Positions 44,401 through 53,400 of a stretch of 64,000 nucleotides of DNA are shown piece by piece. The stretch's first letter is position 1; every line of letters begins with the position of its first letter. Position numbers: made by a program. Origin of the DNA: Escherichia coli (GTDB taxonomy: Bacteria > Pseudomonadota > Gammaproteobacteria > Enterobacterales > Enterobacteriaceae); NCBI RefSeq assembly GCF_044324785.1, contig NZ_CP172127.1. The stretch is one strand, 5' to 3'.

Positions 44401-47400
44401 AATCGTGGCGCAGTTCCGTCAGAACTCCTTGCTGCGACTGGCTCCTGGCGACGATGCGGAAGTGGTGTTTAATGCTCTGCCAGGTAAGGTATTCAGCGGT
44501 AAGCTGGCAGCCATTAGTCCAGCCGTTCCCGGCGGAGCTTATCAGTCGACCGGCACCTTACAGACGTTAAACACAGCGCCGGGTTCAGATGGCGTTATCG
44601 CGACCATTGAACTGGATGAGCATACTGATTTGAGCGCATTACCAGACGGTATTTACGCCCAGGTGGCGGTCTACTCTGATCATTTCAGCCATGTCTCGGT
44701 GATGCGCAAAGTACTGTTACGCATGACCAGCTGGGTGCATTACCTTTATCTCGATCATTAATCTTCGCTTTCCGCCGCTTGTTCAGGCCGCAGTTGCTGC
44801 GACTGAGCAAGCTGGTGGCGAATTTCACGCAGCATTTCATCCAGCACATACTGGACCCGCCAGGGCTGGTATTCCCGTTTACGGAAGATAGCCACCAGAT
44901 CCAGCCACCATTCATACGGGTGCTGAAAGCAGGGCACCAGCGTGCCGTCTTGCAGGTCGCTCTGCACACTTTTGTCTGGCGCAAACACAATCCCCAGGTG
45001 ATTTCGTGCCAGCTCCAGCGCAGATTGCGTGTTGTCGCAAACGTAATTTCCCTTCACGCGATAATCCCGCACCTCTTTACTCCCGGCGACGTTGAAGCGC
45101 CAGATATTCGCGTCGTCGATCATCATCGAGTCGATCAAAATACAGGAGTGATGTTCGAGTTCGTCAGGACGGCTAATGGGATGTTTCTCAAGATAGCGCT
45201 GGCTGGCATAAGCGGTTACGGCATATTGGGTAATAAAACTGGCAACCAGCGATTCATCTTTTGGTTGGGCGTAGCTGATTAAAACATCACAATCATCGGG
45301 AAATTCGACGCCTTCATAAAAGGCATTACGCTCAAGATTGCAGGTTTTTAGCGATAAGGTGATATCACCGATATCTTTAATTTTATCGATTACATGTTTG
45401 GATAAATAGGTAATTATGCCGGTTGGTGCATAGATAGTGACCCGACCACGTTTCTCATGCTTATAATCTGCAATAAAATTATTAAGCTGCTCGTTTCTGT
45501 CCAGCATGTCGTTGATGTACGGTAACAGCACGGTGCCAAAAGGTGTGAGCATCAGCTGTCGGGTGGTTCGGTCAAAGACTTTTAAACCCACTTTTGATTC
45601 AAAATCAGCAAGATATTTGCTGACGTTGGCCTGTGCGATGCCAAGTACAGTCGCGGCATGGCTGATATTTTCACTGGCAGCGATTACCGAGATAATTTTT
45701 AACTCCCGGTACTTAAGTTGTAATTTTGTCATCGCAACAGCCCAATTATATATAATTTTATATATTACTATATAAATATGAATCTTGCACCGGAGAAATT
45801 GTAAGCATTACTATGCCGACTCTTTTTTATCTTATTTTAAAATGGAATACCGGACATGTTAATTAACCGCAATATTGTGGCGTTATTTGCGTTGCCTTTT
45901 ATGGCAAGCGCAACTGCTTCTGAATTATCCATTGGTGCTGGTGCGGCTTATAATGAATCGCCTTATCGCGGTTATAATGAAAATACAAAGGCAATTCCGC
46001 TGATTAGTTATGAAGGTGATACTTTTTATGTTCGTCAGACCACGTTAGGTTTTATTCTGTCGCAAAGTGAAAAAAATGAACTTAGCCTGACCGCATCCTG
46101 GATGCCGCTGGAATTTGACCCTGCCGATAATGACGATTATGCCATGCAACAGCTTGATAAGCGTGATAGTACGGCTATGGCGGGGGTTGCCTGGTATCAC
46201 CACGAGCGTTGGGGAACCGTGAAAGCCTCTGCGGCTGCGGACGTTCTGGATAACAGCAACGGCTGGGTGGGGGAGCTATCGGTATTCCACAAAATGCAGA
46301 TAGGTCGCCTGTCGCTGACACCTGCGCTGGGCGTTCTCTATTATGACGAGAATTTCAGTGACTATTACTATGGCATTTCAGAGAGTGAGTCCCGTCGTAG
46401 CGGTCTGGCAAGTTATTCCGCGCAGGATGCCTGGGTGCCCTATGTCAGCCTGACGGCAAAATACCCGATAGGAGAGCACGTCGTATTGATGGCGAGCGCA
46501 GGATACAGCGAGCTGCCGGAAGAGATTACCGACAGCCCGATGGTTGATCGTAATGAGAGTTTTACCTTTGTCACCGGCGTGAGCTGGCGTTTTTAATTCA
46601 CCGGTGGATGTCGGTGCGGCTGGCCTACGCTCTCGCACCGACTTGTAGGCCTGATAAGACGTGTTAAGCGTCGCATCAGGCAATGTGCACCCTACGGTGG
46701 ATGCGGCGCGAGTGCCTTATCCAACCTACGGATGGCAATGCTTTTCCTCATTCACCCAGATCCGCATTTCGCCTTCACCCCGGTTGGCCCAGCTAAACCA
46801 CGGGATAAACGTCAGAATTTGCGGCTGGCGTTTGGCTGGCGCGCTGTCGTAATGCCACAGCGGTTGCTGCTCTGGATTGCTCTGTTCATACCGGTAACCC
46901 GGTGCCTGGATTAAGATCTTATGGCTGAACAATCCCTTGCCTTCAAAGGTCGTAAATGGCGCATCGGCGGGCAGCCACAGGTTATGCAGTGACTCGCCGT
47001 TGTCGGCCTGTTCCAGGCAATACACCAGCGGGCCGCGCTGAATCGCCACTTTTCCGGCGACGTGACGCACCAGCGGGTTACCGTAAACGCGGCGTACCGG
47101 CATCGGCAAAGTCAGATTCAGCATATCTCCCTCCTGCCATTCGCGGGTAATGTGCAAATACCCTTTACGAATATCCTGCTCGACCTCTTCCCCATTCAAT
47201 ATGATCTGCGGCTGTGTGCACCAGTCCGGCAGACGTAAAGCCAGCGTATGACGTACCGGCTGGGGCGATTCGACCGCAATCGTCACCTGCTCCTGCCACG
47301 GATAGTTCCCGCTAACCCGCAGGCGCAGCGTGCCATTTTCTACCGGCACTTCCATGCTGTTTCCTGCGTAGATGTTGATATACAACGCATCTTCACGCGG

Positions 47401-50400: not shown

Positions 50401-53400
50401 AGGGAGGCATCCGGCAAGGCGGCTGGAGTCATGGGAAATTATCTTTGTCGAAAAAGGTCGATTAGCGATTCAGGAAGAAGAGCGGATATTTCTGGTCGAT
50501 GCGGGAGAGAGTTTATTACTCTGGCCGAACCGACAGCATGTTGGGGTAGAGGATTTTCCCGCCGATCTCAAATTTTACTGGCTGCATTTTGAGGTTAAAG
50601 CGCCGGATAGCGACCCGCGCTGGCTCACTCATCTTAGCGTGCCGCAACAAACGAAGGTTGCCGATCCGCAGGCGCTGGTGGCCCTGTTTCGCCAGTTCTT
50701 AAGCGAACAGGAAAAGCATCAACGCACTCCGGCGCTGGAGTTTATTGTGCTGCTGATTTTGCAGCAGCTCACCCGTGACGCGCGTCTTGATGAACAGGCC
50801 GATGCCGCAGGTACCACGCTTGCCTGGAAAGCGCAGAAACTGATCCGCACGCAATATCATCGCCCGCTTTCCACGGCGCTTTTAGCCCGCGAGCTGTACT
50901 GCAATGCCGATTATCTTGGGCGCGTCTATCGGCGGGTGTTTCATCTGACGTTAACAGAAGCAATCCATCGCCAGCGAGTGCGCGAAGCCGAAAAGCTGTT
51001 AATTAGCGAAGCGCGATCGCTCACTGAAGTGGCGGCGTTGTGCGGGTTTAATGACGTTGGCTATTTCCGGCAGATTTTTCGCAAACACACTGGTTTAACG
51101 CCAGCAGCGTGGAAGCGGCGTTACAGCAAGGAACATATCAATTCGTAGTGCCGGGGCGATGAAGCCCCGGCGTGAGGGATTACTGCCCGTAATAGGCATT
51201 GGCCCCATGCTTACGCAGGTAGTGCTTATCCAACAGTTCGTTTTGCATCGCAGGGAGCTGCGGCGCAAGCTGGCGCGAGAACAGGCCCATATAGGCGCAT
51301 TCTTCCAGTACTACGGCATTATGCACCGCATCGGCGGCGTTTTCACCCCATGCGAACGGGCCGTGAGAATGCACCAGTACCGCCGGGATTTGTGCCGGAC
51401 TCCTGCCACGTTCTTCGAAGGTTTCAATGATCACTTCGCCGGTCTGATATTCATATTCGCCGTTGATCTCCTCTGCGGTCATCTGTCGCGTGCAGGGGAT
51501 TGCGCCATAGAAATAATCGGCGTGCGTGGTGCCCCAGGCGGGGAGATCCAGCCCGGCCTGTGACCAGATGGTGGCGTGGCGCGAGTGGGTATGCACAATG
51601 CCACCGATTTCGGCATAGCGACGGTAAAGCGCCAGATGCGTTGGCGTATCGGACGAGGGCTTTTTGCTGCCTTCTACCACCTTACCGCTGGCTATCTCAA
51701 CCACCACCATATCGTCGGCGGTCATCACGTCGTACTCGACGCCGGAAGGTTTGATTACCATCCATTGCCGCGCTTCGTCTACCGCGCTGACATTGCCCCA
51801 GGTGAACGTCACCAGATGGTGAGCGGGAAGTGCCAGATTTGCCGCCAGCACGTCGGCTTTCAGTTGCTCTAACATATAAAACCTGCCTCCTGCATACGCG
51901 CTTCAATCCAGCGCCGCGCCTGAATAATCTCCAGCACCGGCTCTTTGGCTTTTTCGGTCCACATCTCAATCAGGAAAGAACCGCGATAGTTCAGTTCATG
52001 CAGCGTTTTGAAGATGCCAACGAAATCGACGCAGCCTTCGCCAAACGGCACATCACGGAACTGTCCGGGGCTTTGCCCGGTGACTGGCCGGGTGTCTTTC
52101 AGGTGGATCGCGGCGATACGGTCAATGCCCAGTTTCAGTTCGGCGGGAACATCATTGCCCCAGGCGCTGAGGTTGCCGACGTCCGGGTAGACGGTGAACC
52201 ACGGCGAGGCGAGCATCTCGTCCCACTTTTTCCATTTGCTGATGGAGTTCATAAACGCGGTATCCATAATCTCCACCGCCAGCATGACTTGTGATGCTGC
52301 CGCCTGTTCGACCGCCCACGCCAGCCCTTCAGCAAAACGTTGCTGGGTGCCTTCGTCGTGGTCTTCGTAATAGACGTCATAACCCGCCAGTTGAATGGTG
52401 CGAATGCCGAGATCGCGCGCCAGGCGAATCGCTTTACTCATGATTTCCCGCGCCCGTTCGCGCACCGCCTCGTCCCGGCTGCCAAAGGGAAAGCGACGAT
52501 GTGCGGACAGGCACATTGACGGAATGGCAACACCCGCTTCAATCATCGCAGTGACCAGCGAAGCACGTTGTGCGGCGCTCCAGTCAAGACGTGAGAGCCG
52601 TTCGTCGGTTTCATCCACCGACATTTCGACAAAATCAAAACCGCAGCTTTTTGCCAGTATCAGCCGCTCCGGCCAGGAGAGATCTTTCGCCAGCGCTTTT
52701 TCATAAATCCCTAACGGATGATTACGCACGCGCACCTCCCCAGATGGCATCAATTTGCGCATGGAAATCGCCAGCCACCTGCGCCGGATTTGCTGCGCCT
52801 GCCAGTGCCCGCCCGGCAATAAACGCTTTCACGCGGATATCTTTAAACAGCGGCAGGTCAGCAGGGGTAATCCCGCCGGTAATGGAAAGCTCAAGGCCGA
52901 TATCGGAAAGCGCCTTCATGCGTGCCAGATCGGCTTCGCCCCACTGTTGCCCGCTGGCCTGTGCGTCACGACCGCGATGATAAATGGCCTGCCGCACGCC
53001 AATACGATGCCAGTCGCGGGCGTCGTCCAGCGTCCAGTTACCGAACAGCTCGATCTGAATTTCACCGCCGCAGCGTTGCGCCATCGCGTGGCCTTTTTCC
53101 ACCGTCGCGAGCGGCGCGGCGCAGATGATGGTCATCCAGTTGGCACCCGCGCCAAACGCCTGTTGCGCGAGCGTTTCACCCGCGTCGGCGACCTTCCAGT
53201 CGGCAACGATGATTTTGTCCGGGCACTGTTCGCGCAAGGCTTTCACCGCGCCAAGCCCTTCGTTTAAACAGAGAATGGTGCCCGCTTCGACGATATCGAC
53301 GCTATCTTTTAACAGCGTCACGTCGCGCTGCGCGGCTTCAAGTGATGAATGGTCGAGGGCCAGTTGCAGAAGTGGTCGGCTCATAATGTGTGCTCCTTGA

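Follow-up and report, generated by a model that had tools for sequence, protein, structure and literature searches.

What does the three-gene locus between yiaT and sgbE do in Escherichia coli, and was it gained by some lineages or lost by others? We examined it in a window of 64,000 nucleotides (contig NZ_CP172127.1 of RefSeq assembly GCF_044324785.1), to which all positions below refer. A preliminary description of this window had placed at 46726–51148 an AraC-family regulator gene divergent from a transporter–glycosidase operon, and had read the three genes as a glycoside-utilisation island absent from strain K-12. The open reading frames (ORFs) of the window were compared with the genes that RefSeq annotates in the corresponding stretch of E. 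coli 042; both agreed with these positions and with the divergent arrangement, with the regulator on the plus strand and the operon on the minus strand. The identity of the module, comprising a regulator, a GPH symporter, and an enzyme of glycoside hydrolase family 127 (GH127), can be stated with confidence. We favour, with moderate confidence, the reading that the module is predicted to serve the inducible import and cytoplasmic cleavage of short beta-L-arabinofuranosides to L-arabinose, the substrate being assigned by homology. Comparison with other genomes points to an ancestral locus that has been lost repeatedly.

Products of the three genes

The GH127 glycoside hydrolase gene (46726–48696, minus strand) encoded a protein of 656 amino acids starting from the ATG at 48696, which is also the RefSeq start in 042. 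Three Pfam domains, PF07944 (372 bits, 3.7e-111), PF20736 (1.9e-23), and PF20737 (4.2e-25), covered residues 12–649 and made up the complete GH127 domain set: a catalytic (alpha/alpha)6 domain and two beta-sandwich domains. In the PDB search, the enzyme scored 782 bits with 4qjy (Ara127N, 55% identity) and 504 bits with 3wkw (HypBA1, 43% identity). GH127 structures ranged from 319 to 782 bits versus 67 bits or less for 5opj, 8k7y, and 8k7x; the enzyme is closer to the former than to these three weakest PDB chains. We take 5opj to be the structure of BT0349 and 8k7x/8k7y to be Bll3HypBA1, all presumably belonging to GH146.

Alignment with HypBA1 demonstrated the conservation of H142, Y145, H194, H270, R273, E322, E338, C340, Y386, C415, C417, and C418. 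HypBA1 residues E322, E338, C340, C417, and C418 corresponded to E318, E334, C336, C414, and C415 of the enzyme, and the pocket residues H142, Y145, H194, H270, R273, and Y386 to H134, Y137, H186, H266, R269, and Y382, respectively. In HypBA1, E322 is the acid/base, C417 the nucleophile, and E338, C340, C417, and C418 bind zinc. The zinc site of HypBA1 is of the Cys3-Glu type with a cysteine acting as the nucleophile, and its substrate-binding site is formed by R273, H194, H142, and Y145 (PMC10850190). By correspondence, Cys414 is predicted to be the nucleophile, Glu318 the acid/base, and Glu334, Cys336, Cys414, and Cys415 the zinc ligands, so that the enzyme is predicted to be a cysteine-nucleophile beta-L-arabinofuranosidase (EC 3.2.1.185). 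The GH127-like assignment of the preliminary description was thus borne out by the three Pfam domains, the PDB scores, and the conserved catalytic, zinc, and -1 subsite residues, and no family profile argued against it. The cysteine motif FGCACCPPN and the quoted symporter signature were both present in the translations. The GH127 protein had neither a signal peptide nor a hydrophobic N-terminus, so hydrolysis would take place in the cytoplasm.

The GPH:cation symporter (48707–50107, minus strand, 466 amino acids) was encoded by the first gene of the two-gene operon. Its membership in the family was confirmed by a match to TIGR00792 with 333 bits, above the cut-off of 231 and spanning profile positions 1–437 of 437; Pfam MFS_2 also matched over the full length (247 bits), and a crude hydropathy scan gave 10 hydrophobic segments. 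Cation-coupled transport of a glycoside is predicted from these matches. The best subfamily models were YagG and the YicJ-type PRK11462; the protein remained below the cut-offs of both, as well as of the MelB and glucuronide transporter models, which indicates a distinct paralogue. The stop codon TAA of the transporter gene (48709–48707) overlapped the Shine–Dalgarno sequence AAGGAG of the GH127 gene (48708–48703), as noted earlier and seen by direct reading of the minus strand at 48703–48709. The junction reads ...CAGCCT-TAA-GGAGCACAAG-ATG, with 6 nt from GGAG to ATG, and this overlap suggests translational coupling of the two genes.

The AraC-family transcriptional regulator (50333–51148, plus strand, 271 amino acids) was identified by the Pfam domains AraC_binding (residues 26–132, 1.5e-8), HTH_18 (residues 184–263, 4e-19), and HTH_AraC (5e-8), so that a cupin-type ligand-binding domain at the N-terminus is followed by a double helix-turn-helix at the C-terminus. 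Its best NCBIfam model was AraC (NF007860) with 61 bits; this is far under the cut-off of 208, and the possibility that the regulator is AraC itself was therefore rejected. RefSeq already annotates all three genes, correctly named by its automatic annotation.

The regulator gene and sgbE converge, and a GC-rich hairpin between their stop codons (51150–51171, -20.8 kcal/mol, z = -4.45) is a probable bidirectional terminator. At the other border, directly 3' of the GH127 gene, we found the repetitive extragenic palindromic (REP) elements announced on the yiaT side. REP elements were defined as extragenic imperfect palindromes ending in CTTATC(A/C)GGCCTAC and arranged in opposed pairs, and such a pair, resembling a bacterial interspersed mosaic element, occupied 46645–46729. 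A perfect tail (0 mismatches) at 46645–46658 on the minus strand lay between yiaT and the GH127 stop, and a second one with 2 mismatches at 46716–46729 on the plus strand overlapped the GH127 stop codon. Palindrome arms were present, and the stretch folded stably (z = -4.0). Nine REP tails were found in the window versus 0.4 expected; these came from the tail motif alone, a full-length pattern whose spacer was fixed at 6 nt having given no match. An Rfam scan gave no match in or near the three-gene locus.

Loss and retention at the yiaT/sgbE junction

The claim that the locus is absent from K-12 proved right as regards the genes. In strain MG1655, the three genes were missing between yiaT and sgbE, but the junction was not empty: only fragments of the locus were there, annotated as the pseudogenes ysaD and ysaC. 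The former (annotated 192 bp) aligned as a 190-bp internal piece of the GH127 gene, 90.5% identical versus 97–99% in the flanks, and the latter (annotated 102 bp) as the 3'-terminal 104 bp of the regulator gene. One deletion, which has the microhomology GGCTGG at its ends, took out window positions 46624–46833 and thereby the REP elements together with the 3' part of the GH127 gene; another took out 47024–51044 (4021 bp).

The survey of E. coli covered 5426 complete genomes, in which the locus was considered intact if at least 80% of the 4021-bp segment missing from K-12 was present. It was intact in 2313 genomes, including O157:H7, O145, 042, and the B-derived C41(DE3), while 2461 held the K-12-type scar as one contiguous place. 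In a further 481 genomes, for example those of Nissle 1917 and UM146, aldB abutted sgbE, with yiaW–yiaT and the locus gone. In one enterotoxigenic strain, IS1 lay beside the regulator gene and everything from selB to the control region was gone. Several different deletion junctions thus indicate that the locus was lost at least three times. The E. coli genomes carry a single copy of the locus. O157:H7 Sakai keeps it as ECs_4457 to ECs_4459, where the enzyme is still named hypothetical.

Outside E. coli, in a search in which each species was represented by a single genome, close orthologues of the enzyme turned up in about 70 species of enterobacteria, among them members of Citrobacter, Enterobacter, the Klebsiella oxytoca group, Raoultella, Kosakonia, Kluyvera, Pantoea, Buttiauxella, and Leclercia, and Salmonella diarizonae. 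In every enterobacterial locus whose flanks were long enough, the regulator, transporter, and GH127 genes were arranged and oriented alike, whatever their neighbours. In Citrobacter, Enterobacter, Lelliottia, Pseudocitrobacter, and Huaxiibacter, the trio was flanked by yiaT and sgbE, and two cryptic-clade Escherichia genomes held the module in the same neighbourhood. In comparisons with strain 042 and with other genera alike, each of the three genes had a ratio of nonsynonymous to synonymous substitution rates (dN/dS) within 0.03–0.09; the three genes are under strong purifying selection. Their dS values were typical of core genes, and the G+C content of the locus was 53.1% versus 51.8% for the window.

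The neighbourhood itself varied. O157:H7 Sakai (locus L084, 17317–22456) and Escherichia sp. E1V33 (L003) kept the locus with the whole yiaJ–sgbE operon missing, ysaA abutting the regulator gene; the module is thus independent of the neighbouring operon. A functional link to this yiaK–S (sgbE) operon was rejected for this reason, and also because in many genera the module has no sgbE close to it. In E. whittamii (L004, 3507–3513), sgbE was precisely missing (window 51185–51878 without counterpart), and sgbU adjoined the regulator gene. We failed to find yiaT downstream of the GH127 gene in E1V33 or E. whittamii. In Pantoea ananatis and Bradyrhizobium, the neighbours were checked for clues to the substrate and proved unrelated, with genes for an ABC ATPase, a phosphodiesterase, and a diguanylate cyclase besides dapA and an S9 peptidase-like gene. 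Several Bradyrhizobium spp. (L073–L078, L081) encoded a GH127 protein 72% identical to the enteric enzyme, with neither the GPH transporter nor the AraC-type regulator; in one of them (L073), its gene adjoined a gene for an S9 (oligopeptidase B-like) peptidase. The enzyme gene alone may thus have been transferred between phyla. In a record bearing the title Chryseobacterium sp. 18061 (L025), we found an enterobacterial-type locus with the same match positions as, and nearly the same identities as, Citrobacter sp. 18056 (L024) from the same project; this assembly is probably mislabelled or contaminated.

The preliminary description had called the locus an island, and this label did not hold. 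A horizontally acquired element that entered the yiaT/sgbE junction of some E. coli lineages would account for the presence of the locus in 2313 of the 5426 genomes and for the REP cluster at one border, and the GH127 gene of Bradyrhizobium indicates that the enzyme gene may once have crossed phyla. We nevertheless regard acquisition as highly improbable. Internal fragments of two genes left in K-12 are the mark of a deletion; there are at least three different deletion junctions; and the same position is filled in the five genera listed above and in the cryptic Escherichia clades. The G+C content is native and the dS values core-like. No tRNA gene was found anywhere in the window, the annotation of the corresponding 042 stretch lists no integrase, and direct repeats at the borders of the locus were not found. 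The K-12 remnants, the shared position in other genera, the native G+C content, and the purifying selection together argue that the module is ancestral in enteric bacteria at yiaT/sgbE and that the polymorphism within E. coli reflects repeated loss and not gain.

Control region and proposed function

The divergent control region (50108–50332, 225 bp, 32% G+C) was aligned over 70 loci, namely the window and 69 other genomes, and blocks conserved in at least 90% of them were taken as a phylogenetic footprint. The most conserved non-coding block, AGGTCGGAATCGTCACCTTTTTTTACTCTT, with a length of 30 bp (50199–50228, minus strand), extended from about -72 to -43 relative to the inferred transcription start of the transporter operon near 50156. 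From its position, and by analogy with araI at araBAD, this block is assigned to the regulator as the putative binding site of the AraC-family activator. A weak, activator-dependent promoter of the operon is proposed at 50163–50190 on the minus strand. Its -35-like TTGTTG (50190–50185) lay inside the conserved block CCTTGTTG, and 16 nt on, its -10-like CAGAAT (50168–50163) lay inside GCAGAAT; both blocks were conserved in at least 90% of the aligned loci. A candidate CRP site, TGTGAATTGGATCAGG (50240–50255, plus strand, 2 mismatches), was centred at about -91.5 from the inferred start, and its GATC-N4-TCACA-N-TTT was shared by at least 90% of the 70 aligned loci. Promoter, operator, and inducer are putative assignments, and the operon is probably inducible and CRP-dependent, i.e., catabolite-repressed.

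Given the gene families, the conservation of the active site and of the module, the purifying selection, and the deletion history, all directly observed, the following course of events may be proposed. The regulator would bind a sugar ligand and activate the weak divergent promoter, probably together with CRP. The GPH symporter would import a small glycoside with a cation, most likely a short beta-L-arabinofuranoside such as beta-1,2-L-arabinobiose, which other microbes of the gut or of plants would release from arabinans, arabinogalactan proteins, or the hydroxyproline-rich glycoproteins of plants. The GH127 enzyme, its translation coupled to that of the symporter, would in the cytoplasm cleave the non-reducing beta-L-arabinofuranose by means of a zinc-bound cysteine nucleophile, as HypBA1 does, and the freed L-arabinose would enter the araBAD pathway. 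The locus would be ancestral at its present site, with several independent losses within E. coli, including K-12. Since the loci examined had no linked extracellular enzyme, enterics would rely on fragments freed by other organisms. The uptake and hydrolysis of a beta-L-arabinofuranoside-type or related glycoside had already been suggested in the preliminary description; the type of function is supported by the families and the active site, and the substrate is predicted from homology.

Several observations weigh against this reading. The searchable literature gave no experiment on the enzyme, transporter, or regulator and no functional study of the locus, its sole relevant paper being an association study (PMC11879602). 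The CRP-like match was not significant alone (24 matches found, 25 expected). A consensus sigma-70 scan of 46550–51250 gave no promoter, the inferred one matching the consensus at 8 of 12 positions with a threshold of 9 of 12, so that its proposal rests on conservation. More than half of the complete E. coli genomes had no intact locus, which is thus dispensable in many niches. Furthermore, a 12-residue stretch of HypBA1 loop A (amino acids 35–49), which covers the active site of that enzyme, was absent here and in Ara127N, so the aglycone preference may differ from that of HypBA1, and other specificities also exist within GH127.

The last two points lead to the main rival, in which the enzyme, though of GH127, differs in its specificity for the glycone or the aglycone. 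The same architecture would serve another substrate imported by the symporter, from which the enzyme would remove some other furanose-like or unusual sugar, such as the aceric acid or 3,6-anhydro-D-galactose handled by other members of GH127, or which would be a plant secondary-metabolite glycoside. Besides the shortened loop, it could draw on the transporter, which exceeded the cut-off of no equivalog model, and on the sole NCBIfam match of the enzyme, aceric acid hydrolase NF049879. This match, however, reached 453 bits, less than half of the cut-off of 950, mainly over residues 252–649, and membership in the equivalog was rejected. Two beta-L-arabinofuranosidases were by far the best structural relatives, and all listed substrate-site residues of HypBA1 were identical. 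Nor are enteric bacteria known to encounter fragments of carrageenan or rhamnogalacturonan-II as substrates in the cytoplasm. On balance, another substrate appears unlikely, though a serious alternative. A cryptic or decaying locus, currently functionless in E. coli and heading for loss everywhere, would agree with the repeated independent deletions and with the lack of a consensus promoter; we consider it improbable, because the three reading frames were uninterrupted in the window and in 042 as well as in the remaining loci compared, dN/dS stayed at 0.03–0.09 even within E. coli, the non-coding control blocks were conserved over the 70 loci, and RefSeq names all three as genes in every one of the full-length matches listed.

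The corrected polarity of the polymorphism, the residue-level support for beta-L-arabinofuranosidase chemistry, and the map of the conserved control region are new here, and such findings would not surprise a specialist. If import and cleavage of beta-L-arabinofuranosides is the function, a large share of E. coli, including major pathotypes and the B lineage (as judged from C41(DE3)), would use linkages that have so far been studied mainly in bifidobacteria, Bacteroides, and Xanthomonas. A common presence/absence polymorphism would acquire a metabolic meaning, and the K-12 pseudogenes ysaC and ysaD would be explained. No extracellular arabinan- or extensin-degrading enzymes were linked to the module in O157:H7, enteroaggregative E. 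coli 042, the B lineage, and most plant- and gut-associated enterics. It is conceivable, and we offer it tentatively, that these bacteria cross-feed on beta-L-arabinobiose-type fragments that bifidobacteria or Bacteroides set free from dietary plant glycoproteins, in which case having or lacking the locus would be a niche determinant. The shortened active-site loop could also give the enzyme a preference for aglycones that has so far not been reported in GH127. In a pangenome study of isolates from inflammatory bowel disease, a GH127 protein was among the genes co-segregating with epithelial invasion, and NRG857c was without it (PMC11879602). Because E. coli genomes carry a single copy of the locus, this is very probably the same gene, and the proposed function would provide a testable basis for the link between GH127 and invasive isolates. 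Finally, B-derived expression strains, of which C41(DE3) was seen, carry an intact homologue and are often used for the production of recombinant beta-L-arabinofuranosidases, so the host background needs to be controlled.

Other features of the window and related systems

Elsewhere in the window, a 6.1-kb Rhs element (28216–34363) was located between yibH and yibF and contained an RHS core protein of 1380 amino acids (30030–34172, minus strand), an Imm57-family immunity gene, and small ORFs; it was missing at the same site in 042 and present in about 2455 complete E. coli genomes. The gene of a YadA-like trimeric autotransporter adhesin (about 14500–24250) aligned to 042 only in pieces of 78–97% identity with many shifted internal matches, which indicates that the stalk varies in repeat number and sequence. 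The only Rfam match at gathering level in the window was the small RNA ES036 (CssrF) at 61868–61910 (38.9 bits versus 37.6), located between opposed perfect REP tails (61854–61867 and 61903–61916) and overlapping both by a few bases; it may merely reflect REP sequence. Upstream of mtlA, four near-perfect CRP sites (three with 0 mismatches and one with 1) were found within 180 bp (26320–26496), which we take to be the known multi-CRP promoter of the mannitol operon.

Among known systems, araC–araBAD resembles the locus in its divergent AraC-family regulator with a cupin ligand domain, in a conserved block just upstream of a weak -35 element, and in a CRP-like site that precedes the inferred start by about 90 bp; at araBAD, similar positions are occupied by araI and the CRP site. 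The conserved block described here is unrelated in sequence to araI, and the regulator is far below the AraC cut-off. The aceric acid hydrolase of Bacteroides thetaiotaomicron (NF049879) shares the GH127 fold family, the enzyme studied here being outside its equivalog. In E. coli itself, melAB, uidAB, yicJI, and yagGH likewise combine a GPH-family cation symporter with a co-transcribed cytoplasmic glycoside hydrolase. Their partner enzymes belong to GH4, GH2, GH31, or GH43, whereas the partner is GH127 here and the transporter is below their specific model cut-offs.

HypBA1 of Bifidobacterium longum (Bll1HypBA1, 3WKW), the founding GH127 enzyme, is cytoplasmic and exo-acting, and its zinc site, nucleophile, acid/base, and sugar pocket are conserved here; it differs in its loop A over the active site, which is 12 residues longer. 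The bifidobacterial system takes up beta-L-arabino-oligosaccharides from plant hydroxyproline-rich glycoproteins (PMC7263609, PMC10850190), and the small oligosaccharide is imported and then hydrolysed inside the cell; an ABC transporter is used for this, and the substrate is made by the bacterium's own extracellular GH121 arabinobiosidase (PMC7263609). In contrast, the locus described here has a GPH symporter and no linked extracellular enzyme in the loci examined.

The closest solved relative is Ara127N of Geobacillus stearothermophilus T-6 (4QJY/4QK0), an intracellular enzyme from a Gram-positive thermophile. Its gene is presumably part of a large L-arabinan utilisation cluster with ABC transport and does not adjoin a GPH symporter or an AraC-type regulator. 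Over about 630 aligned residues, Ara127N has the same length and three-domain layout as the enzyme of the window and the same shortened loop near the N-terminus, and all mapped catalytic and zinc residues are identical in the two proteins.

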